Notes under the pieces: model-generated
Database searches by the model: none
Told to the model about the DNA's origin: nothing
The model's input: the letters and a program-made list of their open reading frames with translations, nothing else
DNA from: Oscillospiraceae bacterium
GTDB lineage: Bacteria; Bacillota; Clostridia; Oscillospirales; Oscillospiraceae
DNA length: 27,816 nucleotides
Direction: 5' to 3'
NCBI GenBank assembly: GCA_017501805.1
Contig: JAFVWG010000234.1
Location: 1-27,816 of the forward strand
In this document: one piece after another, positions 11,946 to 27,519 of the stretch
Position numbering within the stretch: the first letter of the stretch is position 1
How the letters are laid out: the number at the start of each line of letters is the position of its first letter
Made by a program: the position numbers and the translations under genes

Positions 11946-13553
11946 TTACTCGCACTTGGGGCCTGCGGCGACCAGAGCCTTGCCGGCTTCGTTTCCGGTA
12001 TACTTGTCAAAGTTCTTGACAAAGCGGGAAGCGAGATCCTTCGCCTTGGTATCCCACACAGACGCATCAGCGTAGGTGTCGCGCGGATCGAGGATGCCGC
12101 TGTCAACGCCGGGAAGAGCCGTGGGAACTTCGAGGTTGAAGTACGGGATGGTCTTGGTGTCGGCCTTCAGGATGGAGCCGTCGAGGATCGCATCGATGAT
12201 GCCGCGGGTGTCCTTGATGGAGATACGCTTGCCGGTGCCGTTCCAGCCGGTGTTGACGAGGTACGCCTTCGCGCCGCTCTTTTCCATCTTCTTGACCAGT
12301 TCCTCGGCATACTTGGTCGGATGCAGTTCCAGGAACGCCTGACCGAAGCAAGCGGAGAAGGTCGGGGTGGGCTCGGTGATGCCGCGCTCGGTACCTGCGA
12401 GCTTGGAGGTGAAACCGGACAGGAAGTAGTACTGAGCCTGCTCGGGCGAGAGGATCGAGACCGGAGGCAGAACGCCGAAAGCGTCAGCGGAGAGGAAGAT
12501 GACGTTCTTCGCATCGGGAGCGGCGGAAACCGGGCGAACGATCTTCTCGATGTGGTCGATCGGGTAGGAAACGCGGGTGTTCTCGGTCACGGAACCGTCG
12601 GCAAAGTCGCAGACGCCGTTCGCGTCAACCGTAACGTTCTCGAGCAGAGCGTTGCGCTTGATGGCAGCGTAGATATCGGGTTCGGACTCCTTGTCGAGGT
12701 TGATGACCTTCGCGTAGCAGCCGCCCTCGAAGTTGAAGACGCCCTTATCGTCCCAGCCATGCTCGTCGTCGCCGATCAGCAGGCGCTTCGGGTCGGTGGA
12801 GAGGGTGGTCTTGCCGGTGCCGGACAGGCCGAAGAACAGGGCGGTGTTTTCGCCGTTCATATCGGTGTTGGCGGAGCAGTGCATGGAAGCCATGCCGTTG
12901 AGCGGCAGGTAGTAGTTCATCATGGAGAACATACCCTTCTTCATTTCGCCGCCGTACCAGGTGTTGAGGATGACCTGCTCACGGGAGGTGATGTTGAAGA
13001 CGGAAGCAGTCTCGCTGTTCAGGCCGAGTTCCTTATAGTTCTCAACCTTTGCCTTGGAAGCGTTGTAGCAGATGAAGTCAGGCTCAAAGTTTTCCAGCTC
13101 TTCGGCGGTGGGGTTGATGAACATATTCTTGACGAAATGCGCCTGCCATGCCACTTCCATGATGAAGCGGATCGCCATTCTGGAGTCGGCGTTCGCGCCG
13201 CAGAACACGTCGACAACGTACAGCTTCTTGTTGGACAGCTGTTTGACAGCGAGATCCTTCAGGGCTGCCCAGGTCTCTTCGCTGCAGGGATGGTTGTCGT
13301 TCTTGAACTCGTCGGAGGTCCACCACACGGTGTCCTTGGAGTTGGCGTCCATAACGATGAACTTGTCTTTGGGGGAACGGCCGGTGTAGATGCCGGTCAT
13401 AACGTTAACGGCGCCGAGCTCGGTGACCTGGCCCTTTTCGTAGCCTTCCAGAGAAGCATCGGTTTCGGCAACAAACAGTTCCTCGTAAGAGGGGTTGCGA
13501 ATGATTTCCTTCACGCCGTTGATGCCATACTTGGTCAAATCAATGTTCTTCAT
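11946..13553 (-). CDS. pckA: Phosphoenolpyruvate carboxykinase (ATP)
   Basis: [58 protein letters not shown]. Start ATG at 13553 (AAAGGTG RBS). Confidence 0.97.
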
Positions 13554-13579
13554 AGTTTTCACCTTTCTTCATTTAAAAA

Positions 13580-14839
13580 TTAAAACAAAATAATCAAAAA
13601 CTGGGAAACTAACACAACTGCAATGAGTGCGACCGGGTATGTGGCAGCGTACGCAGCCGCTACATCCTCCGTACCCGCAACACCGATCAAAGTACCCAGA
13701 GCAGGGGTTGACGTCATACCCCCGGTGAGAGAACCGAGGTTGTTGAGAAGGCTCAGCTTCAAAACATATTTCGCAAACAGGAAGCCGACGATCATCGGAA
13801 CAACGGTCATCACAACGCCGTAAACGAAATACATCGGGTCAAAGTTGGCGATGAATTCCGCACCGCCGGGGATGCCCGCGCCGACAAGGAACAGCACCAG
13901 ACCCAGTTCGCGGAAGAGCTTCAGCGTGCTCTGCGCCGGCATAATGCTGACAGGTCCGATCTTGCCGAAATGTCCCAAAACAAGGCTCATCAGCAGGCAG
14001 CCGCCGGTCGCGGTCAGCGAGAAGCAGGTGCCGGAAAGTCCGTTTGCGGTCAGCGGGATCTTGATATTGCCGACCAGCACGCCCAGAATGGCAGCCAGCG
14101 CAAATCCGGCAACGCCCATATGGTCGATCTCGAAGAGCTTTTTGCTGCTCTTTTTCTCTTCCTTCTCGGACTTCACGATCAGTTTTGCACGCTCTTCATC
14201 CATATTGGCTTTCACAAGCTTCGGGATGAGCTGCACGAAAAGCACAACGCCCACAACACCGAAGATGTAGGAAATGCCGTGACCGACCGATACCAGCCCC
14301 TCATACGAGGGATCGACCGTAGCCTTTGCGGCGGAGAACGCGGGCGTCGAGGTCAGAGAGCCGGAAAGCAGACCGACGATCATCGCCACAAAGCCGTCCT
14401 GATCCGTGATCGTTGCGCCGTAGCCGAACACTTCGCCGGCATAGATGCAGGCAGCTGCGGAAAGTCCGCCCGCAAGAATGATGATCAGTCCGAGCAGAAC
14501 ATAGGACTTAAAATTCCTTTTGAAGTTGCCGAAGAATTTCGGACCTGCGATGTAACCGACAGAGGTAACAAACAAAACAAGTCCCAGACCTTCGATCAGT
14601 TTCATAGCCGTTTTGTAGTCGTACGGCTTTGCCGATGCGCTGAATACCAGTCCGTCGGGGGTCACGCTGAAGCACAGCGCGCCGACGAGCAGAGCGATGA
14701 TGAACACGCCCGCATCACCGAGCGAGACACCCTTCACGGTGATCCTGCCCAATGCATAGCCGAAAAGCAGAACGCCGAACACCACAAAAAGCAGCGTGTA
14801 GATGTCGTTAATGGAGATGACTCCGTCAAAAAACTTCAT
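13580..14839 (-). CDS. AspT/YidE/YbjL-family antiporter/exporter lacking TrkA-C domains; candidate succinate/dicarboxylate transporter
   Basis: Duplicated membrane module with GSLTSTPA and GGMTSTPALG motifs, FRELGLVLFL, YAATYP; only a short charged linker between the halves. The substrate is inferred from context. Confidence 0.8.
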   Translation of the reverse strand: MKFFDGVISINDIYTLLFVVFGVLLFGYALGRITVKGVSLGDAGVFIIALLVGALCFSVTPDGLVFSASAKPYDYKTAMKLIEGLGLVLFVTSVGYIAGPKFFGNFKRNFKSYVLLGLIIILAGGLSAAACIYAGEVFGYGATITDQDGFVAMIVGLLSGSLTSTPAFSAAKATVDPSYEGLVSVGHGISYIFGVVGVVLFVQLIPKLVKANMDEERAKLIVKSEKEEKKSSKKLFEIDHMGVAGFALAAILGVLVGNIKIPLTANGLSGTCFSLTATGGCLLMSLVLGHFGKIGPVSIMPAQSTLKLFRELGLVLFLVGAGIPGGAEFIANFDPMYFVYGVVMTVVPMIVGFLFAKYVLKLSLLNNLGSLTGGMTSTPALGTLIGVAGTEDVAAAYAATYPVALIAVVLVSQFLIILF

Positions 14840-14852
14840 TGCGCTTCCCCCC

Positions 14853-16472
14853 TTAGAAATCCTTCTGCTTGGTGTAGTTGGGGATCAGCTTGGGAGAGAC
14901 TTTATCGGTCTTGATGCCCGCATCGGCCATTTCCTTCTTGAAGCTTTCCACGTGGTCGAGATTCAGCTTGTCGCTTGCAGTCGTATTCTTGGCAACGGCG
15001 GCGGCATGCACGCCGGCATTGCGTCCGAAGACGATGATATCCAGCAGGGAGTTGCCCATCAGACGGTTTTCGCCGTGGATACCGCCGACGGCCTCACCGG
15101 CAACGAAGAGATTTTCAACATCGGACATACCGTTGTCGGCGATCTTGATGCCGCCGTTCTGATAGTGGAGCGTGGGATAGATCAGGATCGGCTGCTTGCG
15201 CATATCGATGCCGTATTTCAGATACATACGCATCATCGCGGGAATTCTCTTTTCGATCGTTCCATCGCCGTGGATCATATCGATCATCGGAGAGTCGAGC
15301 CAGACGCCCTGACCGCCGTTGAAGGTGTCCACGCCCTTGCCGCGGCGGCACTCTCTGATAACAGAGGAAGCGCAGACGTCACGCGTCTCGAGCGGATACA
15401 TAAAGGCTTCGCCGTCGGCATTGATGAGCTGTGCGCCGATGGAGCGCACCTTCTCGGTGACCAGCGCGCCGAAGATCTGCGAGGGATACGCCGCGCCCGT
15501 GGGGTGATACTGCAGGGTGTAGGCATACAGGAGCGGTGCGCCCGCGCGATATGCCATAACCAGTCCGTCCGCCGTAGCGCCGTAGTGGTTGGAGGTCGGG
15601 AAGCCCTGGTAGTGCATACGACCCGCACCGCCGGTGGCGATGATCACGGTTTTGGCGCGTGCCACGAGGATCTCTTTCGTCTCCATATTCATCAGGACCG
15701 CACCGGCAGCCTTGCCGTTTTCGTCCTTGATGATCTCGATCGCGGAAATGAAATCCACAACGGGGATCTGACGGTTCTGCACCTCATCGCGCAAAACACG
15801 CATAATTTCCGCACCGGAGTAGTCCTTGCAGGCGTGCATACGCTTTCTGGAAGTGCCGCCGCCGTGGGTGGTCACCATCGTGCCGTCGGCTTCCTTGTCG
15901 AACATAACGCCGAGGTCGTTGAGCCACTTGATGCAGACAGGCGCATCGTTTACGAGCTTGTAAACCAGCTCGGGGACATTCTTGAAGTGTCCGCCGCCCA
16001 TAACGTCAAGATAGTGCTGCGCGGGGCTGTCATTGGGCTTGTCGGCAGCCTGAATGCCGCCTTCCGCCATCATCGTGTTGGCATCGCCGTGGCGAAGCTT
16101 GGTGACGATCATAACATTCGCGCCGTTTTCGTGCGCCATAATGGCAGCTGCAGAGCCTGCGCCGCCGCCGCCGATCACGAGCACATCGACGTCGTAATCG
16201 AACTTGGTCAGGTCGATATCCTTCGGGTCGATACGGGGATTTGCCTGCAGGGTCTCAGCCAGCTCCAGCGGCACCTTTTCGCCCTTGTTCGGACCGATTT
16301 TCAGCTCGGCGAACTGGGACTTGATATGGTCGGGATGGTTCTCCAGCAGAACCTGATCCTTTTCCTCGGCAGTCATACGTCTGGGATGGTTGCCGGCAAG
16401 AACCTGCTTGAGGCGTTCTTCGCGGGTGGCCTCTACCTTTTTAATGGATTCGAGTTGTTCTTTTGTATACAT
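14853..16472 (-). CDS. Soluble fumarate reductase flavoprotein subunit (FrdA/SdhA/TfrA family)
   Basis: GGGGAG Rossmann motif, TMMAEGG, QYHPT, ETRD, PTLHY and NRLMGNSL match the His/Arg dicarboxylate-site motifs of FrdA. Confidence 0.85.
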   Translation of the reverse strand: MYTKEQLESIKKVEATREERLKQVLAGNHPRRMTAEEKDQVLLENHPDHIKSQFAELKIGPNKGEKVPLELAETLQANPRIDPKDIDLTKFDYDVDVLVIGGGGAGSAAAIMAHENGANVMIVTKLRHGDANTMMAEGGIQAADKPNDSPAQHYLDVMGGGHFKNVPELVYKLVNDAPVCIKWLNDLGVMFDKEADGTMVTTHGGGTSRKRMHACKDYSGAEIMRVLRDEVQNRQIPVVDFISAIEIIKDENGKAAGAVLMNMETKEILVARAKTVIIATGGAGRMHYQGFPTSNHYGATADGLVMAYRAGAPLLYAYTLQYHPTGAAYPSQIFGALVTEKVRSIGAQLINADGEAFMYPLETRDVCASSVIRECRRGKGVDTFNGGQGVWLDSPMIDMIHGDGTIEKRIPAMMRMYLKYGIDMRKQPILIYPTLHYQNGGIKIADNGMSDVENLFVAGEAVGGIHGENRLMGNSLLDIIVFGRNAGVHAAAVAKNTTASDKLNLDHVESFKKEMADAGIKTDKVSPKLIPNYTKQKDF

Positions 16473-16486
16473 AGCACCGCACCCCC

Positions 16487-17161
16487 TTATTTCTCAAAAT
16501 CACGGTTGTTATACATTTCCTTCAGCTCTTCCGCAGTCTTTTTCATAATATCCTGCAGATCGGCTTCGCAGCCGCCGTTCTCGATCTCGGCGACACGATC
16601 CAGAAGATGCCGGGTCTCGGGCGCGAGATACTTGCCGTTGATGCGTCTTGCCAGAAGGCCCACCTGCGGATGGGTAATGCCGGCGGGGCAGCGGGCGGAG
16701 CAAATGCCGCACATCACGCAGTCAAAGGACTCCTCGGCGCACTTTTCAAAGTCGCCTCTCTGCGCGTAGGCAATGTACTGCATAACATTCAGTTCCTGCG
16801 GGCAGGCCTTGGTGCAGGCGTTGCAGCCGATGCAGGCGTAAATCTCGGGATACAGCTGCATCATGATCTGCTCGGTGGGCTTCACGTTCTCGAGCTCATA
16901 GGGCTGCTTCACCAGCGGGAAGAACGGAAGCGTGGCAATATACATATTGTCCTCGACCTTGGTCTGGCATGCAAGGCAGGTCTTGAGCTCCTGCTGACCC
17001 TTGATCCGGTATATTGTAGCACACGCACCGCAGAATCCGCAACGGCAGCCGACACCGCGAACGAGCTGGTAACCGGCATATTCCATAGCATTCATGATCG
17101 TAAGGCTCTCGGGGACCTCATACTTTTTGCCGTAAAGGTAAATGTTCACCATTTTTTCCAT
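16487..17161 (-). CDS. Fumarate reductase Fe-S subunit (FrdB/TfrB N-terminal-like)
   Basis: [2Fe-2S] CRCGFCGAC...CLAC plus two CxxCxxCxxxCP motifs (CIGCNACTKACP, CVMCGICSARCP); adjacent to the flavoprotein. Confidence 0.82.
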   Translation of the reverse strand: MEKMVNIYLYGKKYEVPESLTIMNAMEYAGYQLVRGVGCRCGFCGACATIYRIKGQQELKTCLACQTKVEDNMYIATLPFFPLVKQPYELENVKPTEQIMMQLYPEIYACIGCNACTKACPQELNVMQYIAYAQRGDFEKCAEESFDCVMCGICSARCPAGITHPQVGLLARRINGKYLAPETRHLLDRVAEIENGGCEADLQDIMKKTAEELKEMYNNRDFEK

Positions 17162-17173
17162 ACTAACATCTCC

Positions 17174-18007
17174 TTAATACTCACTGGGCAGTTCGTCCAG
17201 TTCATCGCAGCGGAATACAGGACCGTCCTTGCAAACGTATTTGGAGCCCACGTTGCAGCGTCCGCATTTGCCCACGCCGCACTTCATACGAAGCTCCAGC
17301 GTCGTGTACACGTTGGTCTTGTCGAAGCCGATCGCGCACAGACCTTCCAGTGTGAACTTGATCATAATGGGAGGACCGCACAGGACTGCGACTTTATTGG
17401 TGTCGAAGCCGAGTTCCTTCACATAGTTGGGAACAAAGCCGACATGTCCGTCCCAGCCCTCCTGCGGGTTATCGATGGTCAGATGTACATTGACACCGCT
17501 ATCGGTGGACCATTCGCTTATGATCTCCTGATAATCCAGCAGATCGTCCTTGCTGCGGGAGCCGTATACGATATCGATCTTACCGTAACGGTCGCGGTAA
17601 TGGCGGCAGTAGTTGATGACCGAGCGAAGCGGGGCCAGACCGACGCCGCCGGCGATGAAGAGCAGGTCTTTTCCCGCGAACACATCGTCCACGGGGAAGG
17701 GATTGCCGTAAGGGCCGCGGATGGTGATCTGCTGACCGACCTCCGCCTGATGCAGCCATTCGGTCACGCAGCCGCATTTTTTAATGGAAAACTCCATAAA
17801 TTCCGTGTTCGTGGGCGACGAGGTGATGGAAAACATCGCTTCGCCGACGCCCGGAATGGACAGCATCGCGCACTGACCGGGCATATGGTCGAAGGCCTTT
17901 TTGCCGTCGGGCGTCACCACGCGGAACGTTTTGATGTCGGGCGTATCGATACGCACATCGGTAATGACGGCGATCTTCGGAATTAAAGTATCGTTCACGT
18001 TATTCAC
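17174..18007 (-). CDS. flxA: FlxA-like FAD/NAD(P)H-binding [2Fe-2S] subunit (AsrB/HydG family)
   Basis: PGQCAML, FSITS, RGPYGN, AGGVGLAP, CGPPIM, MKCGVGKCGRC...VCKDGP. GTG start at 18007 or 17998. Confidence 0.82.
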   Translation of the reverse strand: MNNVNDTLIPKIAVITDVRIDTPDIKTFRVVTPDGKKAFDHMPGQCAMLSIPGVGEAMFSITSSPTNTEFMEFSIKKCGCVTEWLHQAEVGQQITIRGPYGNPFPVDDVFAGKDLLFIAGGVGLAPLRSVINYCRHYRDRYGKIDIVYGSRSKDDLLDYQEIISEWSTDSGVNVHLTIDNPQEGWDGHVGFVPNYVKELGFDTNKVAVLCGPPIMIKFTLEGLCAIGFDKTNVYTTLELRMKCGVGKCGRCNVGSKYVCKDGPVFRCDELDELPSEY

Positions 18008-19028
18008 CTTTATTCCCTCCGATCTTTTTCATCACTTTCACGATATTCATCGAAATGGGGCATTTGGCAAGGCAGCGTCCGCAGCCCACACAGCTGAACA
18101 GTCCCTCATTGTTTTCGGGATAATACACCAGCTTGTGCATAAAACGCTGACGGAAGCGCTCCTTTTGGGTCAGGCGGTTATTGCCGTGCGCCATTTTCGT
18201 GAACTCGGAATACATGCAGGAGTCCCAGCAGCGGAAGCGGACAACGCCGTTTCCGGTGTTGAAGTCCTTGATGTCGTAGCACTGGCAGGTCGGGCACACG
18301 AAGGTGCAGGTGCCGCAGCCGAGGCAGGCGGAAGACAGCTCTTCCCACGCGGGATGGTCAAACAATTCGTTTGTTTTTCCGCCGCCGAAGCCGTCGGTCG
18401 TGAGGTCCCTCAGGGGAAGCTTTGCCATCACGGCGGCGATCTTTTCCTTCTGCTCCGCAACTGCCGAAGCATCGCCCGGCTCGGTCAGCGCCGAGAGGGT
18501 CTCGAGAAGCGCAGCACCCTTTTCGGTGTTGGCTTCGAAGAAGATCTCCGTTTCGGTCTTCCACGCGGAGATATCTCCCGCCGGAGCGGCGGGATCGATG
18601 CCGAAGGTCTTGCAGAAGCAGGTCTCGACAGGTCTTGTACAAGCAAGTGACACAATGACGCCGTGCTTTCTTCTGTTCGCGTAAAAGCTGTCCACAGGCT
18701 CCGTCAGGAACACGCGGTCAAGCACATCGAAGCTTCTGACGTCGCAGGCGCGAACGCCGAAAACCACGAAATCCTCCGCCTCGGAGCGGATGTCTTCCAC
18801 CTCGATGTTTTTTCCCTCGGTCTTGAACTTCATCAGATCCTCCGTCTGGGGGAAGAAGAAATCCTTGGGGCTGCGGACGGTGTTCAGAGTCTTGCTCCAA
18901 ACCGTGCCTTCGGACCATTTTTTATACGCTGCGCTGCCGTCGGTCTGGTCGACAGGGAGATACAGGGCAGCATTCTTTGCAATTTCAGCAAACAGTGCGT
19001 CGATTTTATCCAAAGAACATTTACGCAT
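18000..19028 (-). CDS. flxB: FlxB-like 4Fe-4S protein (AsrA/HydB family)
   Basis: FGVRACD, CLGCGTCTFVCPTCQC, RCWDSC, RFRQRFMHK, CVGCGRCLAKCP. Confidence 0.8.
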   Translation of the reverse strand: MRKCSLDKIDALFAEIAKNAALYLPVDQTDGSAAYKKWSEGTVWSKTLNTVRSPKDFFFPQTEDLMKFKTEGKNIEVEDIRSEAEDFVVFGVRACDVRSFDVLDRVFLTEPVDSFYANRRKHGVIVSLACTRPVETCFCKTFGIDPAAPAGDISAWKTETEIFFEANTEKGAALLETLSALTEPGDASAVAEQKEKIAAVMAKLPLRDLTTDGFGGGKTNELFDHPAWEELSSACLGCGTCTFVCPTCQCYDIKDFNTGNGVVRFRCWDSCMYSEFTKMAHGNNRLTQKERFRQRFMHKLVYYPENNEGLFSCVGCGRCLAKCPISMNIVKVMKKIGGNKGE

Positions 19029-20019
19029 TGCGATCCCCCCTATCCAAGACTTCGCCCGGCTCCGGATCTTCGGTGGTGTAGTTCACCAGCGGTGCGCGGG
19101 AATCGACCTCGGCGCCTGCCTGATATTCGCCGTAAAATTCGTTCATATCCTTGATGAATTTACGGTTCAGCAGATGCAGCGGGATGTTCTGCGGGCAGAC
19201 TCGCGAGCATTCGCCGCAGTCGGTGCAGCGACCGGCAACGTGGTACGCGCGGATGATGTGGAACAGTTTCTCCTCGAATTCGTTCGCGGGAGATTTGTTT
19301 TCCACGCCGGATTTCGGATTGTCGAACACGCACTTTTCGCAGGTGCAGGCGGGGCATGCATCGCGGCAGGCGTTGCAGCGGATGCAGCGGGAAAGCTCGT
19401 TCTGCCAGAAGGCGTATCGCTCATCTGCGGTCATCGCCTCGATGCGCTCCACCTCGTCGAAACGGTTCGAGTCCAGAACATCGCCGTCTTCGCCCATCAG
19501 TTCATCGTAGGCCACGTGCTTTTTGCTCTTGCAATTCACGCAGCGCTCGGCGAGAACCTCTTTGGTTTCCACCGCAACGGGGGCATCATCGTACAGGGTG
19601 GAAACAAGCAGCTTGTCGCCGTCCGCTTTGATCGAAGCAATGCCGTCACCGCTGACCGCCTTGACCTTGGCAATATCCACCATACCCTCGCAGGGAATGC
19701 CGACGGCATATACCTTCTCGCGGTCGAAGCGATGCTCGGTCAGGAGCTGATTGAAACTGTAGGTGTCGCAAGGCTTCAAAAACACGAGGATCTTCCCCTC
19801 TGCCTTTGCCGCTTTGGAGACAAGATATTTCGAGAAGTTCGCACCGCAGAAATCATGGAACACAAAGCCGTCATTCAGTTCCTCGGCGGACTCGAAAACA
19901 GTAGGCGTAACATCGTAGTCAAACTCACCCTTGCCCCAGCCCAGAACCAGACTGACAGTTCCGTTGGAAAGGAGTTCCGATGCTTTTGCGATCAGCTGCT
20001 CACGCGTTACTTTTTGCAT
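19021..20019 (-). CDS. flxC: FlxC-like 4Fe-4S protein
   Basis: LKPCD, CIRCNACRDACPACTCEKC, HVAGRCTDCGECSRVCP; lies between the mvhD-like and asrA-like genes as in flxDCBA. Confidence 0.78.
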   Translation of the reverse strand: MQKVTREQLIAKASELLSNGTVSLVLGWGKGEFDYDVTPTVFESAEELNDGFVFHDFCGANFSKYLVSKAAKAEGKILVFLKPCDTYSFNQLLTEHRFDREKVYAVGIPCEGMVDIAKVKAVSGDGIASIKADGDKLLVSTLYDDAPVAVETKEVLAERCVNCKSKKHVAYDELMGEDGDVLDSNRFDEVERIEAMTADERYAFWQNELSRCIRCNACRDACPACTCEKCVFDNPKSGVENKSPANEFEEKLFHIIRAYHVAGRCTDCGECSRVCPQNIPLHLLNRKFIKDMNEFYGEYQAGAEVDSRAPLVNYTTEDPEPGEVLDRGDRNA

Positions 20020-20441
20020 CTCAGATCCTCCAATCTCTTGTTTTCACCCAGTGCAGCCACCGTCTGAACGAAATCGTTCATCGTGGCGGCAAACTTTGCG
20101 CCTTCTGCGGCGGAGACCCATTCCACGCGGGTGCGTTCCTTCTCAATGCCGAGGAAGTCCAGCATGGAGAACAGCGCCGCCATGCGACGACGGGTGTAAT
20201 AGTTGCCCGACGTATAGTGGCAGTCGCCGGGATGGCAGCCGCAGAGGATCACGCCGTCGGCTCCGCGCTGGAACGCACGCAGAATAAACATGGGGTTCAC
20301 GCGGCAGGAGCACGGAACGCGAATAATTTTTACATCGGCAGGATAGGCCAGACGGTTGTTGCCCGCGAGGTCAGCACCTGCGTAAGAGCACCAGTTGCAG
20401 CAAAACGCAACGATGAGCGGCTTATATTCTTTTACTTGCAT
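20007..20441 (-). CDS. flxD: MvhD/FlxD [2Fe-2S] adaptor subunit
   Basis: AFCCNWCSYAGAD, RVPCSCRV, GADGV..CGCHPGDCHY, WVSAAEG. Confidence 0.92.
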   Translation of the reverse strand: MQVKEYKPLIVAFCCNWCSYAGADLAGNNRLAYPADVKIIRVPCSCRVNPMFILRAFQRGADGVILCGCHPGDCHYTSGNYYTRRRMAALFSMLDFLGIEKERTRVEWVSAAEGAKFAATMNDFVQTVAALGENKRLEDLRCKK

Positions 20442-22426
20442 ATTGCGTCAACCTCCGCCATAATTTGCAGGTTTGCAAAGCCCTTCAGATCCATCGCTCC
20501 CGACGGACACGCGACGGTGCAGGCGCCGCAGCCTTGACAAACCGCCGGATTGACCGACGCCACTCTTCTGAGCTTGGTCGTTCTGTCGGGCATGCGGAAT
20601 TCTTTTTCTTCGTACGTGATCGCGCCGTAGGGGCACACATTCGCGCAGGAAGAGCAGCCGTTGCACATCAGTTCGTTCGAGCTTGCAACGCAGGGGTTGC
20701 CCGTAAGCTTATCCTTTGCAAGCAGGCCGATCACCTTCGCAGCCGCCGCACTCGCCTGAGAAACCGTCTCGGGGATGTCCTTCGGTCCCTGGCAGGTGCC
20801 GGAGAGGAACACGCCTGCCGTGGGGCTTTCCACGGGGCGAAGCTTCGGGTGCGCTTCGGTGAAGAAGTCGTTGGTATCCATACTCGCGGTAAGCATCGTC
20901 GCAAGCGGACGAGCGGAGCGATCCGGTTCGATCGCCGCTGCCAGAACAACGAGGTCCGCGTCGATGTGCAGCTGCTTGTTTGCGAGCAGATCGGAGGCCT
21001 GCACCTTCAGTTTGTCGCCTTCGGGCGTCACCTTGCCGACCATACCCTTTATGTATTTCACGCCGTATTCTTCCACCGCACGGCGGTAGAACTCGTCAAA
21101 GTTCTTGCCGGGCGTTCTCACGTCGATGTAGAAGACATACACTTCCGTTTCGGGATATTTGTCCCGGACGAGCATCGCGTGCTTCGCCGTATACATGCAG
21201 CAGATCTTCGAGCAGTATTCCTTGCCCTTTTCGGCGCAGGCGTCACAGCGTGAACCGACGCACTGCACAAAGACGATCGTCTTGGGCGACTTGCCGTCGG
21301 ACGGACGCTCCAGATGACCGGCAGTCGGACCTGCGGCATTGGTAAGACGTTCAAATTCCAGAGACGTGATCACGTCTTTGGACTGGTTGTAGGCAAACTC
21401 GTCAAACTTGTCCATGCTGATGGGGTTAAAGCCGGTCGCCACAACGATCGCGCCGTATTTTTCCGCGATAAACTCATCTTTCTGGGTGTAGTCAATCGCA
21501 CCCACGGTGCAGAAGCGGGCGCAAAGACCGCACTTGCCGTTTTTCAGCATATTGCAGGCATTGGGGTCGATGGTAGCCACCTTCGGCACCGCCTGTGCAA
21601 AGGGAATGTAAACCGCCGTGCGATTGTCCATACCGAGGTTGAACTCGTTGGGGACTTTCTTCATCGGGCACATTTCAACGCAGGCGCCGCAGCCCGTGCA
21701 GATCTCTTCCTTGACATATCTTGCTTTCTTTTTGATCGTAACATCAAAGTTTCCGACGAAGCCCTTGATCTCCGAAACTTCACTGTAGGAGAAAATGCGG
21801 ATCTTGTCATTCTGCGCAACATCCACCATTTTGGGGGTCAGAATGCAGGCCGCGCAGTCGAGCGTCGGGAAGGTTTTATCCAGCTGCGCCATTTTGCCGC
21901 CGATGGTGGGCTTCTTTTCGACAATGTCGACCTCAAAGCCCGCGTCCGCGATGTCCAGAGCGGTCTGAATGCCGGCAATGCCGCCGCCGATCACCAGCGC
22001 GCGCTTGGTCACGGGCGTCTCACCGGGCGTGAGCGGAGCGTTCAGGTTCACCTTCGCGATCGCCGCCTTGCCGAGAATAATGGCCTTCTCGGTGCCGGTC
22101 ACCATATCCTTATGGACCCAGGAGCACTGCTCACGAATGTTGGCGATCTCGACCATATAGGGGTTGAGACCTGCCGCAGCCGCCGTCTTGCGGAAGGTGG
22201 CTTCGTGCATACGCGGCGAGCAGGAGCAAATCACGAGACCGGTAAGATTATGCTCCTTCACGGCATTGATGATCATTTCCTGACCTGCCTGAGAGCACAT
22301 ATATTGGTAATTGGCGGAAAAGACGACACCGGGTTCGTTTTTTAAGGCTTCGGATACTGCCTGCACATCGACCGTGCCTGCAATATTGCTGCCGCACCAA
22401 CATACAAAAACGCCAACTCTTTGCAT
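20432..22426 (-). CDS. hdrA: Heterodisulfide reductase subunit A (FAD, Fe-S)
   Basis: GVFVCWCGSNI, CSCSPRMHE, NIREQCSWVH, GGGIAG, KTFPTLDC, inserted and C-terminal ferredoxin motifs, QCVGSR, CSKICCMYTAK; 664 aa, uninterrupted. Confidence 0.95.
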   Translation of the reverse strand: MQRVGVFVCWCGSNIAGTVDVQAVSEALKNEPGVVFSANYQYMCSQAGQEMIINAVKEHNLTGLVICSCSPRMHEATFRKTAAAAGLNPYMVEIANIREQCSWVHKDMVTGTEKAIILGKAAIAKVNLNAPLTPGETPVTKRALVIGGGIAGIQTALDIADAGFEVDIVEKKPTIGGKMAQLDKTFPTLDCAACILTPKMVDVAQNDKIRIFSYSEVSEIKGFVGNFDVTIKKKARYVKEEICTGCGACVEMCPMKKVPNEFNLGMDNRTAVYIPFAQAVPKVATIDPNACNMLKNGKCGLCARFCTVGAIDYTQKDEFIAEKYGAIVVATGFNPISMDKFDEFAYNQSKDVITSLEFERLTNAAGPTAGHLERPSDGKSPKTIVFVQCVGSRCDACAEKGKEYCSKICCMYTAKHAMLVRDKYPETEVYVFYIDVRTPGKNFDEFYRRAVEEYGVKYIKGMVGKVTPEGDKLKVQASDLLANKQLHIDADLVVLAAAIEPDRSARPLATMLTASMDTNDFFTEAHPKLRPVESPTAGVFLSGTCQGPKDIPETVSQASAAAAKVIGLLAKDKLTGNPCVASSNELMCNGCSSCANVCPYGAITYEEKEFRMPDRTTKLRRVASVNPAVCQGCGACTVACPSGAMDLKGFANLQIMAEVDAICK

Positions 22427-22440
22427 TTGTCTTTTCCTCC

Positions 22441-22830
22441 TTACTTGCTGTATTTTCTGAATGCGCTGACCAGCAGCTGCTGCGGGATGTCCTCGTCCAG
22501 CAGGGCGGGCACATCGTCAGCCGTCATACGGTTCGCACCCTGTTTTCTGATCACGCTCAGGCGCACGGCCTCCACCAGCTTGGCGGGCTCCACGCTTCTG
22601 GGGCATCTGTCCACACAGGCGAAGCAGGACAGGCACTTGTAGAGCGATTCCGAGTTGAGCAGCGGCTCAATGTCACCCGTCTCCACCATGCTGACGAACT
22701 GATGAGGATGATACTCCATCTCGTCAAAGGCAGGGCAGGTGGCGGTGCACTTGCCGCATTTCATACATTTCCGGGGATTCACACCGCTCTGGCGGATCAG
22801 TTCCTCGCGAAGATACTTGTTGTTATGCAT
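22441..22830 (-). CDS. hdrC: Heterodisulfide reductase subunit C-like 2x[4Fe-4S] protein
   Basis: CMKCGKCTATCP and CLSCFACVDRCP; 129 aa. Confidence 0.88.
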   Translation of the reverse strand: MHNNKYLREELIRQSGVNPRKCMKCGKCTATCPAFDEMEYHPHQFVSMVETGDIEPLLNSESLYKCLSCFACVDRCPRSVEPAKLVEAVRLSVIRKQGANRMTADDVPALLDEDIPQQLLVSAFRKYSK

Positions 22831-23614
22831 TTGTATCCTCCTTTACGCCGAGCGCCTCTGCCAAAAGTTCGGTGATATACACCACGGGAATATCCGCTCC
22901 GTTTTTCACCAGATTGTACTTGCACAGCGGGCAAGCCGTGATCAGCATCTGTGCGCCCTGCGCTTTTGCATTGTTCACAACGGCATTGCTCTTTTCTTTT
23001 GCAAGTTCGGGGCTTTCCACGCTGACATAGCCGCCGCAGCACTCATTGCGCATCGCGTACACGACCGGTTCTGCGCCGAGCGCCTTGATAAAATCCTCCA
23101 TAATGGTGGGATTTTCGGGATCGTCCATCTGCATCACGCTGTTCGGTCTGAGCAGCAGGCAGCCGTAATACGCCGCGATCTTCTTCCCCGCAAGCGGGTT
23201 TACGATCTTTTCCTTCAGCGCGTCAAAGCCGACAAGATCGCGCAGCATCTCCAGATAATGATACACCTTCGTCTCGCCGAGATACGCATCCTCTTCGTCC
23301 ATATAGCGGCTGACCTTGTCGGAAAATTCCGCATCGGTCTGCATGGCGTGATTGGTCTGCTTGATAACATTGTGGCAAGCCGAGCAAACGGTCACGAGCG
23401 GCTGTTCCTTTCTGTGCGCATCCTTCAGCGCACGGACGGAGGAAAGTTTCGTTGCAATCTCATCTTTCGCGGTAGTAAACACACCGCCGCAGCATTGCCA
23501 GTTTTCAATTTCTTCGAGCGTGACTCCCAGCGCCTCCGCGGATTTGCGTGCATACAGATCCAGCTCCTTGGCCTTGTTCTTCAGCGTACAGCCCGGAAAA
23601 TATGCAACCTTCAT
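22823..23614 (-). CDS. hdrB: Heterodisulfide reductase subunit B (two CCG domains)
   Basis: YFPGC...WQCCGG...CSAC and YYGC...ECCGG...CPLC. Confidence 0.92.
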   Translation of the reverse strand: MKVAYFPGCTLKNKAKELDLYARKSAEALGVTLEEIENWQCCGGVFTTAKDEIATKLSSVRALKDAHRKEQPLVTVCSACHNVIKQTNHAMQTDAEFSDKVSRYMDEEDAYLGETKVYHYLEMLRDLVGFDALKEKIVNPLAGKKIAAYYGCLLLRPNSVMQMDDPENPTIMEDFIKALGAEPVVYAMRNECCGGYVSVESPELAKEKSNAVVNNAKAQGAQMLITACPLCKYNLVKNGADIPVVYITELLAEALGVKEDTNA

Positions 23615-23629
23615 GTTTATACCTCCGAA

Positions 23630-25006
23630 TCAAACCATTTCTTCGGGATGGAATACCTCGTCAAATTTTTCTGCCGTCAGGAAGCCGAGCTCCACGCAGG
23701 CTTCTTTCAGGGAAATGTCGTCCTTGAACGCCTTCTTCACGGTCTTGGCGGCGTTTTCGTATCCGATGTAGGGATTGAGTGCCGTAACGAGCATCAGGGA
23801 GTTGTGCAGATTGTGGTGCATCTTTTCTTTGTTCGCCTTGATTCCGACCGCGCAGTTCTTGTTGAAGGAGCGGATCGCTTCCGCCATCAGTCTCGCCGAC
23901 TGCAGGAAGTTGTAGATGCAGACCGGCATAAAGACGTTCAGTTCAAAGTTGCCCTGCGAAGCGGCAAGACCCACCGCAACATCGTTGCCCATAACCTGAA
24001 CCGCGACCATCGTGACCGCCTCGCACTGGGTGGGATTCACCTTGCCGGGCATAATGGAGGAGCCGGGCTCGTTTTCGGGAATAAAGATCTCGCCGAGACC
24101 GTCACGCGGACCGGAAGCCAGCCAGCGCACGTCGTTTGCGATCTTCATCATATCGGCAGCCAGCGCCTTGATCGCGCCGTGGGCAAACACAAGCTCATCC
24201 TTGGAGGTGAGTGCGTGGAATTTGTTGGAAGCGGTGACAAAGGGCTTTTTCGTGATGTTGCCCACTTCCGCGGCAACCGTCTCGGAAAAAGCGGGGGGCG
24301 CGTTGAGACCCGTGCCGACCGCCGTTCCGCCGAGTGCAAGCTCATACAGAGGCTCGATGGAGCGCTTGATCAGTTCAATGTCCTTTTCGAGGCTGGAGCG
24401 CCAGCCGCTGATCTCCTGGCTGAACTTGATGGGCGTGGCATCCTGCAGATGGGTACGTCCGCTCTTGACGATGCCTTCGTTTTCTTCCTCAAGTCTCTTG
24501 AAAGTCGCAACCAGCTCCTCGACGGCGGGGATCAGCTTATCTTCCAGAATGAGCACCGCCGCGATATGCATCGCCGTGGGGAAGGTGTCGTTGGAGGACT
24601 GGCTCATATTGACGTCATCGTTGGGATGCAGCAGCTTCTTGCCGAGGATCTCATTGCCTCTGTTGGCGATGACCTCGTTTGCGTTCATGTTGGACTGCGT
24701 GCCGGAGCCCGTCTGCCACACGACCAGCGGGAAGTTGTCGTTGAGTTTGCCCGCCATAATTTCATCGCAGGCGGCCTTGATCGCCTCCAGCTTTTCTGCG
24801 GTCATCTTCTCCGGACGCAGGGCGTTGTTGGTGATGGCGGCGGCCTTTTTCAGCACGCCGAACGCGTGAATGATCTCGCCGGGCATCGTCTCGATGCCCA
24901 CACCGATCTCGAAATTCTCGTGACTTCTCTGCGTCTGCGCAGCCCAAAGTTTATCGGCAGGCACCTTCACTTCACCCATAGAGTCGTGTTCGATACGATA
25001 GTCCAT
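23630..25006 (-). CDS. fumC: Class II fumarate hydratase
   Basis: DSMGEV, WQTGSGTQSNMNANEV, GRTHLQDA, GSSIMPGKVNPTQCEA. Confidence 0.96.
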   Translation of the reverse strand: MDYRIEHDSMGEVKVPADKLWAAQTQRSHENFEIGVGIETMPGEIIHAFGVLKKAAAITNNALRPEKMTAEKLEAIKAACDEIMAGKLNDNFPLVVWQTGSGTQSNMNANEVIANRGNEILGKKLLHPNDDVNMSQSSNDTFPTAMHIAAVLILEDKLIPAVEELVATFKRLEEENEGIVKSGRTHLQDATPIKFSQEISGWRSSLEKDIELIKRSIEPLYELALGGTAVGTGLNAPPAFSETVAAEVGNITKKPFVTASNKFHALTSKDELVFAHGAIKALAADMMKIANDVRWLASGPRDGLGEIFIPENEPGSSIMPGKVNPTQCEAVTMVAVQVMGNDVAVGLAASQGNFELNVFMPVCIYNFLQSARLMAEAIRSFNKNCAVGIKANKEKMHHNLHNSLMLVTALNPYIGYENAAKTVKKAFKDDISLKEACVELGFLTAEKFDEVFHPEEMV

Positions 25007-25034: not shown

Positions 25035-25976
25035 TTAGATATTCAAGGTTTTGATCAGATCTTTCAGGACCTTTGCACTTTTATGCAGCGCCGCAATTTC
25101 CTCCTCGTTCAGGGGGAGTATGACCTTGGCGTATGCGCCCTTTTTGCCCACAACGTTGAGCAGGCTCAGACAGACATCGTCAACGCCGTATTCGCCGTTC
25201 ACCAAAGTCGAAACGGTGAGCATCGTCTCAACGCCGCTGAGCAGACACTTGCAGATATGGCACACCGAGATCGAGACCGCGTAGAAGGTAGCGCCCTTGC
25301 GCTGAATGATCCGCGAGCCGGAGGTGCGCATATACTCTTCCACTTCGCTCTTAACGAAATCGGGATATTCCGTCTTGCTCTGGATCGCGTCCTTAAAGGC
25401 CTCGATCGGCACATTGGAAATGTTGGCAAGCGACCAGGGGACGAAGGAATTGTCGCCGTGTTCGCCGAGCACGTAGGCGTGCACGTTTTTCTGGTTCACG
25501 GTGTAGTATTCCGAGATGCGCGAGCGCAGTCTTGCCGTATCGAGGACCGTGCCCGAGCCGATGACGCGCTCCTTGGGCAGCCCCGTGTGCTTGAGGAACA
25601 CATAGGTCAGAACGTCAACGGGGTTGCTGACGATGATGTAAGTAGCATTGGGCGCGACGGGGACGATCTTGTCGGCAATGCTCTTGATGATCTCCACGTT
25701 GGCCTGTGCAAGATCGTGACGGGACTGACCGGGCTTTCTCGCGATGCCAGAAGTGATGACCACGATTTCCGAATTTCTGGCGTCGGCATACGAGCCGGCG
25801 TAAATATCCACAGGCGTGCAGAAGCAGGTGCCCTGTCTGATGTCCATTGCTTCGCCGAGTGACTTTTCCTGATTGATATCGATCATAACGATTTCGGAAG
25901 CAATTCCCATCGTAGTAAGCGTGTATGCGATCGTGGATCCGACGTTGCCCGATCCGATAACGGTGATTTTGCTCAT
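25035..25976 (-). CDS. mdh: LDH/MDH-family dehydrogenase, probably a malate dehydrogenase
   Basis: GSGNVG, SNPVD, GTVLDTAR, GEHGD. The specificity-loop residue is Arg (GIARKPGQSR, codon 25737-25739), not the Gln of LDHs. Lies next to fumC. Confidence 0.75.
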   Translation of the reverse strand: MSKITVIGSGNVGSTIAYTLTTMGIASEIVMIDINQEKSLGEAMDIRQGTCFCTPVDIYAGSYADARNSEIVVITSGIARKPGQSRHDLAQANVEIIKSIADKIVPVAPNATYIIVSNPVDVLTYVFLKHTGLPKERVIGSGTVLDTARLRSRISEYYTVNQKNVHAYVLGEHGDNSFVPWSLANISNVPIEAFKDAIQSKTEYPDFVKSEVEEYMRTSGSRIIQRKGATFYAVSISVCHICKCLLSGVETMLTVSTLVNGEYGVDDVCLSLLNVVGKKGAYAKVILPLNEEEIAALHKSAKVLKDLIKTLNI

Positions 25977-26054: not shown

Positions 26055-26594
26055 TCAGAAGTATGTGATGCTTATTTTTTTGCCCATCTTTTCAAGGCAG
26101 TCGGCAAGCTCTTCCGCAAGGTGCATCTTCACGTCAAAGCCGATCGGAAGATCCGGCGTTTCGTGGGCGGGGTTTACCGCTCTGCCGATGTAGAGGTGAA
26201 TATCGCTTGCCTCTCCGAAGAGTGCTCTGCTCAAAAGCGAAGCGCCGTCCTTTTGACATTGCCACGTTTCGCAAAGCCGTTTTTCTCCGAGGAGATCCTT
26301 CGCGTATTCCAGCACGCGCCCGACGGTGATCACACCTTCGGTGACGAGATCCGCACCCTCCAGCTCCGCCGTAGGCGGGATATCCTCGTCCTCATAATCA
26401 AGGCTTGCCGCCAGCGGTTTTTTCAAAAACGCTGCCGCGATGCCGGCGGTTGTGCCGCCGCAGATCATGTGCATCCCCTCCTCCGAGAAGAAGCGGGAAA
26501 GCATCCGGTCGGCATCGGCACGGTCGGACGGCGGACCGAAGAGCACATTCACGCGGACGGCGCCGCCGTCCGTCTTATCTCCGCAGTATTCCAT
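26055..26594 (-). CDS. Stand-alone protein resembling the C-terminal domain of HfsC/SpoIIE-type phosphatases of hydrogenase loci
   Basis: VLFGPP, ICGGTT, LEGADLVTEGVIT, YIGRAVNPAH motifs recalled from the C-terminal half of hydrogenase-associated SpoIIE proteins; no PP2C motifs; own AAGGAG RBS and ATG. Confidence 0.65.
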   Translation of the reverse strand: MEYCGDKTDGGAVRVNVLFGPPSDRADADRMLSRFFSEEGMHMICGGTTAGIAAAFLKKPLAASLDYEDEDIPPTAELEGADLVTEGVITVGRVLEYAKDLLGEKRLCETWQCQKDGASLLSRALFGEASDIHLYIGRAVNPAHETPDLPIGFDVKMHLAEELADCLEKMGKKISITYF

Positions 26595-26627: not shown

Positions 26628-26867
26628 TCAGAGCTTTGCCTTGATCTGCTTCTCGAAGAACTCGTCTGCCGAATCCGGCGTCACGGAAAAGAGCTCGTCA
26701 TTGATGGTGACGCAGACGCCCTCCTGACACTTTCCGATGCAGAACGTGCCCTTGAGTCTCACCTTATCTTCCAGCCCGTTTTCGCTGATGCGATTTTGCA
26801 GGCATTCCAGAACCAGACGGGAGCCTTTGATATGACAGTAGCTTCCGATACACACAGTAACGATCAT
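26628..26867 (-). CDS. Thioredoxin-like [2Fe-2S] ferredoxin (NuoE/HfsA-like)
   Basis: VCIGSYCHIKG and TFCIGKC give CxxxxC...CxxxC; ATG at 26867 after GGAGG. Confidence 0.85.
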   Translation of the reverse strand: MIVTVCIGSYCHIKGSRLVLECLQNRISENGLEDKVRLKGTFCIGKCQEGVCVTINDELFSVTPDSADEFFEKQIKAKL

Positions 26868-26895
26868 GTTCGTTTCCTCCAATACTATTTTCGAA

Positions 26896-27519
26896 TCAGT
26901 TGCGTGACATACGATTTCTCAGATGCGCCAAGGACAAAGCCAGGCTTTCGTTCTGAAGCAGGACATCATCCGGCACCTGCAGCTTGCAGGGGGCAAAATT
27001 CCAAATAGCCTTGATGCCGCTCGCTACCATTCTGTCGCAAACCTCCTGCGCCGAGGCTTCGCCCACGGTGATGATGCCGAGTTCCACGTTGTTTTCCCGG
27101 CAAAAATCCGAGAAGCGATGCATCGGCAGGATCTCCGTTTTGGAAGCCGCAGCAAGGGCGTGCTCATTCGAGTCAAACGCCGCAGCGATCTTCACACCGT
27201 AGTGGCGAAAGCCGTCGTACTGCAAAAGCGCGCTTCCCAGCTTTCCCGCGCCGACCAAAACAGCCAAAGTCATCTGGTTGTAGCCGAGGCAGTCTTCCAA
27301 TTGGCTGACCAGGGTTTCCGTATCATACCCGACCCGCGGTCTGCCTGCGCCGCTCACCATGGAAAGATCCTTTCGCACCTGAACCTCGCCGAGCTTCAGC
27401 GCTTTCGCGATCGTCGTTGCCGATATGTGAGGAACTCTTTCCGGGGAAATCTCTCTGAGATACGTGAGATATCTCGGGATGCGTCCCAGCGTAGCTTTCG
27501 GTATGGAGCTTTTATCCAC
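26896..27519 (-). CDS. rex: Redox-sensing transcriptional repressor Rex
   Basis: Winged-helix region (GRIPRY, QVRKDL, GY) plus Rossmann domain (LVGAGKLG, LLQY, AFD, IWNFAP). Confidence 0.92.
   Translation of the reverse strand: MDKSSIPKATLGRIPRYLTYLREISPERVPHISATTIAKALKLGEVQVRKDLSMVSGAGRPRVGYDTETLVSQLEDCLGYNQMTLAVLVGAGKLGSALLQYDGFRHYGVKIAAAFDSNEHALAAASKTEILPMHRFSDFCRENNVELGIITVGEASAQEVCDRMVASGIKAIWNFAPCKLQVPDDVLLQNESLALSLAHLRNRMSRN

Follow-up and report, generated by a model that had tools for sequence, protein, structure and literature searches.

A conserved succinate operon of gut Clostridia: HdrB as a candidate direct electron relay between Flx-HdrABC and fumarate reductase

The window analysed here is a clostridial contig of 27,816 nucleotides, and the element in question is the stretch from 16487 to 23614 on its minus strand, which runs exactly from the stop of frdB to the start of hdrB. 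It encodes an HdrABC module with its MvhD and Flx subunits, followed by the iron-sulfur subunit of a fumarate reductase, the flavoprotein FrdA being encoded directly downstream. For these proteins we favour, with guarded confidence, a single picture: a soluble complex in which HdrC and HdrB are wired directly to FrdB by their Fe-S clusters, and in which HdrB supplies the half of the methanogen thiol:fumarate reductase subunit TfrB that FrdB does not contain. The gene products would form one soluble multi-subunit enzyme, with an NADH-fed Flx-HdrABC docked to the two-subunit fumarate reductase and no diffusible thiol between them. Direct wiring is favoured because of the synteny of the genes, the linkage of HdrBC to FrdB, the collinearity with TfrB and a docking model. 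A reading made from the sequence alone had listed direct wiring, HdrB in place of the missing TfrB half, and a thiol/disulfide shuttle as three separate options; the TfrB collinearity, the docking and a four-gene unit found in distant genomes fold the first two into one, and the shuttle is weakened. What we infer from the observations set out below is that the complex forms, in which direction its electrons flow, that ferredoxin is reduced by bifurcation and that the HdrB clusters act as a relay.

The genes of the two modules, in the order of transcription, are:

22823 to 23614, minus strand: HdrB-like protein, 263 aa, with two CCG motifs (two Pfam CCG matches)
22441 to 22830, minus strand: short HdrC-like protein, 129 aa, with two [4Fe-4S] clusters (Fer4 families and HdrC NCBIfam matches)
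20432 to 22426, minus strand: HdrA flavoprotein, 664 aa, of the full four-domain type (NCBIfam HdrA2, 776 bits)
20007 to 20441, minus strand: MvhD/FlxD [2Fe-2S] connector, 144 aa (Pfam FlpD, 185 bits)
19021 to 20019, minus strand: FlxC-like protein, 332 aa, with two [4Fe-4S] clusters (Fer4 dicluster at residues 208-279; position kept in all loci)
18000 to 19028, minus strand: FlxB-like (HydB/AsrA-like) iron-sulfur subunit, 342 aa (Fer4_22, 104 bits; ShyB, HydB and AsrA models at E 1e-52 to 1e-42)
17174 to 18007, minus strand: FlxA-like NAD(P)H/FAD/[2Fe-2S] entry subunit, 277 aa (NAD_binding_1, FAD_binding_6 and DHODB_Fe-S_bind; HydG and AsrB models match)
16487 to 17161, minus strand: FrdB-like iron-sulfur subunit, 224 aa (Fer2_4 and 4Fe-4S dicluster matches)
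14853 to 16472, minus strand: FrdA/TfrA-like flavoprotein, 539 aa (FAD_binding_2, 228 bits)

Conservation of the operon

The source genome, a metagenome-assembled genome (MAG) of an uncultured member of the Clostridia, has 320 contigs that add up to 1.78 Mb, with a completeness of 85% and a contamination of 6%. The nearest loci in other genomes, which stem from the guts of animals and humans, carry the labels Acutalibacteraceae, Oscillospiraceae or Clostridia, and one cultured species, Yeguia hominis NSJ-40 (L058), carries the operon. As far as the contigs extend, the core order fumC-hdrB-hdrC-hdrA-mvhD-flxC-flxB-flxA-frdB-frdA is identical in all 80 of the 80 species loci examined. The ten genes from fumC to frdA are separated by overlaps of 8-13 nt or gaps of 12-15 nt, and all seven Flx-Hdr domain types (HdrA, HdrB with two CCG domains, HdrC, FlxD/MvhD, FlxA, FlxB and FlxC) are found in adjacent overlapping genes.

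Traces of the operon were seen in RNA data sets. In two gut metatranscriptome runs from one study, no more than 5-7% of the sampled sequence words were present, and a few short metatranscriptome contigs were near-identical to frdB, hdrA, hdrB and the permease gene; DNA carry-over is possible in both cases, and neither transcription nor co-transcription is demonstrated by these matches.

The fumarate reductase subunits

The cysteines of FrdB are accounted for by iron-sulfur clusters. In a set of 29 full-length sequences from the family, with identities as low as about 31%, twelve cysteines are invariant, of which C39, C44, C47 and C65 belong to the [2Fe-2S] cluster and the remainder form two CxxCxxCxxxC motifs for two [4Fe-4S] clusters. 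A Pfam search of FrdB gave no CCG domain match, in agreement with the sequence-only reading, which had described a protein of 224 residues without this domain, and no spare family-conserved cysteine is left. No CCG fusion was present among the best 150 representatives of the FrdB family, the sole long one being a fusion of FrdB to FrdA. A possible redox pair formed by C62 and C141 was rejected, since the two residues are limited to a subclade (8 and 6 of the 29 members, respectively).

Comparison with known families places FrdB at a distance from its characterized relatives. Its AlphaFold2 (AF2) model, with a predicted local distance difference test (pLDDT) value of 90, has the FrdB/SdhB subunits of complex II as best matching folds (probability 1.0), at a template modelling (TM) score of about 0.3 that marks the relationship as distant. 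With the TfrB model FrdB reaches 42.8 bits, the cut-off being 385; it is likewise far under the cut-offs of the SdhB models, and no membrane subunit is encoded within the operon.

FrdA is the only full-length member of its family in the genome. Its best NCBIfam model, TfrA, gives 343 bits where the cut-off is 718, and the match extends no further than profile position 422 of 546. In an alignment with E. coli SdhA the HPT His, TE pair, proton-donor Arg, His and Arg are all kept, and an Asn replaces the His that links the FAD. An N-terminal extension of about 90 residues is free of cysteine, the matches to the TfrA and SdhA models end before the C-terminal domain, and no conserved CxxC was found in FrdA. 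Because all conserved cysteines of FrdB are cluster ligands and FrdA has no conserved CxxC, FrdAB is without a recognizable thiol-oxidizing site.

HdrB and HdrC

HdrB has exactly ten cysteines, C9, C41, C42, C77 and C80 in the first half and C152, C192, C193, C228 and C231 in the second. They make up two complete five-Cys CCG motifs (C-x31-CC-x34-C-x2-C and C-x39-CC-x34-C-x2-C), as the sequence-only reading had claimed, and all ten are kept in 60 of 60 species homologues. The protein aligns to solved methanogen HdrB at E 1e-36 to 1e-31, with C80 and C231 opposite the bridging residues Cys81 and Cys234, which are a mark of the catalytic noncubane cluster form in methanogen HdrB (PMC13083937). 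The NCBIfam models for HdrB (147 bits) and SdhE (152 bits) both match below their cut-offs. For SdhE the cut-off is 500, and this score does not place the protein among the Type E succinate:quinone oxidoreductases (SdhABE).

In HdrC, eight cysteines are kept in 60 of 60 species homologues. The short form of the protein is also found further away, its length being 126-133 aa in seven of eight distant Frd-linked systems.

Search for a thiol carrier or a second CCG protein

The panel for this search consisted of the source genome and 30 relatives, and 23 of these 31 genomes are at least 90% complete. The absence of a DsrC-like gene from the cluster, pointed out from the sequence alone, extends further: a DsrC family search found none in the open reading frames (ORFs) of the window, in the whole source genome (85% complete) or in the 30 relatives. 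The same genomes gave no family match for ComA of coenzyme M (CoM) synthesis, CoB synthesis not being searched, and BshC of bacillithiol synthesis was not found in them either. The sequence-only reading had also allowed for a separate CCG-bearing, TfrB-like partner elsewhere in the genome. Genome-wide, HdrB is the sole CCG protein of the source genome, and no second one was present in the near-complete relatives G404, G420 and G422, which carry the operon.

The occurrence of FrdB follows that of HdrB in the panel. Seven of the 31 genomes carry FrdB, and all seven have a short HdrB with two CCG motifs on the same contig; in one genome that lacks FrdB (G414), short CCG proteins of a different kind occur.

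One further candidate for the carrier, the thioredoxin-like [2Fe-2S] ferredoxin encoded at 26628-26882, was rejected, as it belongs to the rex head of the cluster and is an Fe-S protein, not a dithiol one.

Collinearity with TfrB and distant gene arrangements

TfrB of Methanothermobacter is a single polypeptide with a [2Fe-2S] cluster, two [4Fe-4S] clusters and two C-terminal CCG domains that oxidize CoM-SH and CoB-SH. Three separate proteins of the operon match the TfrB profile one after the other, with FrdB residues 11-85 on profile positions 18-92, HdrC residues 19-96 on 133-219 and HdrB residues 1-254 on 262-487. These matches are collinear and do not overlap, and methanogen TfrB therefore appears as a natural fusion of FrdB, HdrC and HdrB parts. 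HdrC and HdrB, as products of separate genes, would together correspond to the C-terminal two thirds of methanogen TfrB, with the role of a wire and not of a thiol-oxidizing site. FrdA for its part has TfrA as its best NCBIfam model, below the cut-off. In contrast to TfrAB, the TfrB parts are divided over three genes here, and all scores lie far under the thresholds of the families. A CoM synthesis gene was not found, and HdrA is the expected source of the electrons.

Of 401 genomes sampled from the phylum, 42 contain genes of the FrdB type, and relatives occur at no fewer than 577 places in a collection of species-representative genomes. Two of the distant Bacillota loci (L100, 6595-10224, and L109, 7861-11469) consist of four-gene hdrC-hdrB-frdB-frdA units and have neither HdrA nor Flx genes within about 9 kb, and in three others (L099, L102 and L106) frdBA lies directly upstream of hdrB. 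As the four-gene units are without HdrA, HdrBC is a recurrent partner of the reductase and not of HdrA alone. Two Bacillota genomes that are 99% complete, G156 (L107) and G126 (L105), encode FrdB and FrdA (FrdB identity 53-56%) and no CCG protein anywhere. In these genomes the reductase must therefore be fed by something besides HdrB, which argues for an FrdBA that takes its electrons from Fe-S proteins, independent of thiol chemistry.

Further arrangements were noted among the distant loci. Just upstream of the four-gene unit of L109 lies a TRAP/TAXI-type transporter (a DctM fusion and an NMT1_3 binding protein). At L091 (7531-16779), FrdB and FrdA are followed by a fusion of Fer4 with the cytochrome b domain Ni_hydr_CYTB and are flanked by ACP, CitE, CitF, aconitase and PrpF; this locus may be a membrane-linked variant, or one that acts on another unsaturated acid. 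The natural FrdB-FrdA fusion (727 aa) is found at L084 (5250-7433), with no redox partner genes upstream. L085 (128-13081), on a contig that begins at hdrA, encodes HdrA, an MvhD-FlxC fusion of 484 aa, FlxB, FlxA, two tandem FrdB/FrdA-like pairs and a succinyl-CoA synthetase (SucCD). At L087 (5289-17445) FrdB and FrdA are part of an ATP-citrate-lyase cluster of the reductive tricarboxylic acid (TCA) cycle, with a paralogous FrdB-like gene (236 aa) directly upstream of them and a protein of 402 aa with Fer4 and CCG domains about 4 kb downstream.

Docking model of HdrB, HdrC and FrdB

Multimer modelling, which the sequence-only reading had put forward for all of HdrABC with FrdAB, was run for HdrB, HdrC and FrdB, and in the resulting models FrdB docks on HdrB and HdrC. 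With FrdB as the scored partner, the three-chain prediction gave values of 0.85, 0.87 and 0.89 for the interaction prediction score from aligned errors (ipSAE), and the best of three controls gave 0.00. The pLDDT of the partner was at least 81, and at least 95% of the contacts were shared among the runs. In the docking calibration 58 of 80 solved complexes and 2 of 110 mismatched pairs came up to this mark, counts that are approximate for the present prediction with its author-supplied 24-row alignments and three chains.

The modelled interface of FrdB comprises residues 85-86, 96-114 (including C110 and C113), 125-137 and 159-160, and the contacts on HdrB are residues 9-13, 38-41, 54-58 and 104. 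The first [4Fe-4S] motif of FrdB (C110, C113) is placed against C9 and W39-C41 of HdrB, where ligands of the N-terminal CCG cluster are located, and the C-terminal tail of HdrC (104-128) wraps around FrdB. When an unrelated protein took the place of HdrB, with HdrC kept, the score fell to 0.00.

Searched by sequence, the solved structures contain no comparable complex, and HdrB matches only methanogen HdrB chains. It is therefore unlikely that the model reproduces a known interface, although the pair HdrB-HdrC has been solved. The prediction supports binding of FrdB to HdrB and HdrC without demonstrating it.

HdrA, ferredoxin outlets and the proposed electron path

HdrA residues 3-661 align to residues 5-648 of the methanogen structure 5odc_A, a solved bifurcating HdrA (E 2.5e-203), with the inserted ferredoxin domain kept. 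At the flavin, E359 and K415 occupy the positions of E356 and K409 in M. thermolithotrophicus, a Glu/Lys pair that is the signature of bifurcating HdrA (PMC9430772). In its full domain set and in this pair, HdrA conforms to the bifurcating type. Two potential outlets for reduced ferredoxin were considered. The source genome encodes one [FeFe] hydrogenase, on contig C259; RnfC and RnfD gave no match in this genome, which at 85% completeness does not establish their absence, and RnfD is present in 27 of the 31 genomes, operon carriers included.

The standard potentials are about -320 mV for NADH, about +30 mV for fumarate and about -420 to -500 mV for ferredoxin. With these values the coupled reaction would be comfortably exergonic, and ferredoxin is probably co-reduced with NADH as donor, judging from the features of HdrA.

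In the proposed path, electrons from NADH would enter at FlxA (FAD and [2Fe-2S]), pass through the [4Fe-4S] clusters of FlxB and FlxC to the [2Fe-2S] cluster of MvhD/FlxD, and reach the FAD of HdrA, where each pair would be split. The low-potential electron would leave through the ferredoxin domains of HdrA to ferredoxin. The high-potential electron would travel through the two [4Fe-4S] clusters of HdrC and the two CCG clusters of HdrB to FrdB, and from there through two [4Fe-4S] clusters and then the [2Fe-2S] cluster to a non-covalent FAD in FrdA, at which fumarate would be reduced. Reduced ferredoxin could be discharged by the [FeFe] hydrogenase or by Rnf.

Neighbouring genes

The genes that surround the two modules in the window are:

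23630 to 25006, minus strand: class II fumarase FumC, for fumarate supply (TIGR00979, 715 bits, above cut-off)
25035 to 25976, minus strand: malate dehydrogenase (Ldh_1_N and Ldh_1_C)
26055 to 26594, minus strand: protein of 179 aa without a Pfam family in the Pfam search, between rex and mdh
26628 to 26882, minus strand: thioredoxin-like [2Fe-2S] ferredoxin ORF, between rex and mdh (Pfam 2Fe-2S_thioredx, E 3e-8)
26896 to 27519, minus strand: redox-sensing regulator of the Rex type that heads the cluster (Put_DNA-bind_N and CoA_binding)
13580 to 14839, minus strand: Asp-Al_Ex (AAE) permease, a likely succinate exporter (PF06826, 174 bits; 3' of frdA in most loci)
11946 to 13562, minus strand: ATP-dependent phosphoenolpyruvate (PEP) carboxykinase (PEPCK_ATP, 673 bits)

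The order of transcription is mdh-fumC-hdrBCA-mvhD-flxCBA-frdBA-exporter-pckA, within a cluster that extends from rex through mdh to the exporter and pckA. The gene set is a single operon that leads from PEP via oxaloacetate, malate and fumarate to succinate and its export.

In many loci a Rex homologue is encoded beside the operon. In other species, such as those of L058 and L064, both the 179-aa protein and the Rex homologues are encoded downstream of the operon. A search for the Rex operator TTGTGAANNNNTTCACAA with up to three mismatches gave two matches in the window, neither of them upstream of the operon and their count no higher than chance, the sequence 5' of rex lying beyond the window.

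Relation to known systems

An operon of this type has been described before. In Pseudoclostridium thermosuccinogenes, a "succinate operon" encodes a fumarate hydratase, a Flx-Hdr complex of seven genes, a fumarate reductase of two genes and a putative transporter for succinate, and the authors propose NADH-dependent fumarate reduction coupled to the reduction of ferredoxin (Koendjbiharie et al., 2020, PMC7282089). To the extent that the published description allows comparison, gene content and layout are the same as here. The differences are the host, here a gut or rumen Clostridia MAG, and the additional mdh, ATP-dependent PEP carboxykinase gene and rex head. Electrons are said there to pass "to ferredoxin (and thiols)", and in the portion of the article available the link between HdrB and FrdB is not settled.

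Similarly, in tubeworm symbionts and Thioflavicoccus mobilis, tfrAB is found among flxABCD-hdrABC and korABCD (Rubin-Blum, 2019, PMC6315080). The authors suggest a complex with direct electron shuttling, and a 2026 survey repeats this suggestion and reports co-expression (PMC13147460, citing Mitchell 2024). Like the operon described here, this system has a two-gene TfrAB-like reductase beside Flx-Hdr, and the layout of L085, with SucCD, is similar to it. In contrast, its hosts are Gammaproteobacteria, in which it belongs to carbon fixation by the reductive TCA cycle with a 2-oxoglutarate:ferredoxin oxidoreductase, whereas here succinate production is fermentative.

The FlxABCD-HdrABC complex of Desulfovibrio vulgaris, for which DsrC is the proposed acceptor (Ramos, 2015, as cited in PMC7282089 and PMC6315080), shares all seven subunit types. 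The present system differs from it in that no DsrC was found, the genes stand in the reverse order and a fumarate reductase is joined to them.

Two systems are relevant to the role of HdrB. In Sporomusa ovata and Moorella thermoacetica an HdrCBA-MvhD-MetVF methylene-tetrahydrofolate (THF) reductase has been studied, in which HdrB pulls down MetF and glutathione and lipoate are without effect (PMC9430772). As in the operon described here, HdrABC and MvhD are joined to a reductase that does not act on thiols, with no known disulfide. The terminal reductase and its substrate differ, and the inserted ferredoxin domain of HdrA, present here, is absent there. In mycobacterial EtfD, which is homologous to HdrBC, two CCG clusters are part of a plain electron wire that feeds a membrane haem and menaquinone; these sites have altered ligands (Thr for Cys, and an added His) and are shielded from solvent (PMC13083937).

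In view of these systems, the statement of the sequence-only reading that each of its three options would be new chemistry was overstated: EtfD provides a wire made of CCG clusters, the problem of the MetVF system is an open one of the same kind, and the operon type has been published (PMC13083937, PMC9430772, PMC7282089, PMC6315080). PMC7282089 and PMC6315080 already contain both the operon type and the bifurcation hypothesis, and the cluster belongs to a predicted enzyme type; the phrase "bifurcating fumarate reductase" itself was found in no paper. New here are the docking hypothesis, the hdrCB-frdBA units, the genome-wide negative results for a carrier and the catalytic-looking site of HdrB.

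Alternative readings and points against direct wiring

The alternative that holds up best, though we consider it unlikely, retains the same docked complex and differs in the fate of the electrons, which would run from NADH to fumarate with HdrA as a wire and no ferredoxin reduced. Such a reaction has a precedent in an irreversible, soluble, NADH-dependent fumarate reductase of five subunits in Hydrogenobacter thermophilus (Miura, 2008, as summarized in PMC13147460). It would also fit the fact that FrdBA pairs combine with several different input modules and that no Rnf was found in the source genome. However, HdrA has lost neither the inserted ferredoxin domain nor the E359/K415 signature, seven extra subunits would be a costly investment for a reaction within reach of simpler enzymes, and outlets for ferredoxin exist, with the [FeFe] hydrogenase in this genome and Rnf in relatives that carry the operon.

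Less probable again is a shuttle, in which a small or protein dithiol would be reduced at HdrB and re-oxidized to feed the reduction of fumarate, as in methanogen Hdr and Tfr. The retention of both five-Cys motifs and of the bridging cysteines in all 60 species speaks for such a shuttle, and the hdrCB-frdBA units without HdrA require a donor, for which a Tfr-like thiol is the obvious candidate. Several observations oppose it. FrdAB has neither a CCG domain, a conserved CxxC nor a spare conserved cysteine with which to oxidize the thiol, and the lone CCG protein of the source genome and of the near-complete relatives would have to both make and consume it. DsrC, ComA and BshC were not found in the panel, FrdB is modelled as sitting on the N-terminal CCG cluster of HdrB, and in the analogous MetVF-Hdr system glutathione and lipoate were without effect (PMC9430772).

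We would attach about the same low probability to a bound form of this chemistry, in which a thiol/disulfide, either a small molecule or a protein Cys pair, is held between the HdrB clusters at the FrdB interface. The four-gene units would then be true bacterial thiol:fumarate reductases with a new thiol cofactor, and the Flx-Hdr version would close the thiol cycle within one particle.

Slighter still is the chance that electrons pass from HdrC to FrdB directly, leaving HdrB mainly as a scaffold, an alternative exit or a regulatory site. The contacts with the lowest predicted error are indeed those of the HdrC tail (104-128) with FrdB, and the HdrC-like dicluster of TfrB is located after its [2Fe-2S] part and before its CCG part. 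This route is at odds with the loss of all score when an unrelated protein replaces HdrB despite the presence of HdrC, with the position of C110 and C113 of FrdB, which touch C9 and Q40/C41 of HdrB and not the cluster motifs of HdrC, and with the invariance of all ten HdrB cysteines.

The least probable of the alternatives is that no stable supercomplex exists and that FrdAB is fed by free ferredoxin or a soluble donor, while Flx-HdrABC serves another acceptor under shared regulation only: FrdBA does occur alone in many genomes (two of them without a CCG protein) and once as a natural FrdB-FrdA fusion without Hdr neighbours, but the synteny with overlapping genes is invariant in 80 species, in every relative with FrdB a short HdrB is encoded on the contig of FrdB, the docking prediction has high confidence, and the operon shows no other high-potential acceptor system.

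Several points nevertheless weigh against direct wiring through the HdrB clusters. The ligand set of HdrB is not distinguishable from that of HdrB proteins that cleave a disulfide, and by its residues the site still looks competent for disulfide chemistry. EtfD, the proven wire, has lost or replaced CCG ligands, whereas HdrB keeps the full set of the catalytic type. The docking result is a model confidence and no measurement, and the model is without cluster-to-cluster distances or a position for the cluster domain of HdrC. The modelled interface of FrdB shows no clear gain in conservation where FrdB is linked to Hdr: the ratio of interface to non-interface identity is 0.96 in 8 Hdr-linked FrdBs and 0.90 in 13 that are apparently stand-alone, several of the latter being from genomes with short CCG proteins elsewhere. 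The source genome, in which the carriers were sought, is 85% complete. Finally, no report of a purified or assayed Flx-Hdr-linked fumarate reductase was found in the literature searched.

Significance

Many gut and rumen Clostridia produce succinate without quinones or a membrane fumarate reductase. If the electrons of NADH are split between fumarate and ferredoxin by the complex proposed here, the operon would provide a soluble form of "fumarate respiration". The reduced ferredoxin would feed hydrogenase or Rnf and, if this is true, would shape the fluxes of succinate, propionate and H2 in the gut. The junction of HdrB and FrdB is a clean test case for the role of the HdrB clusters in bacterial HdrABC systems that have no heterodisulfide, and the question is open to direct testing because the operon is present in the cultured Yeguia hominis NSJ-40 and has been described in P. 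thermosuccinogenes.

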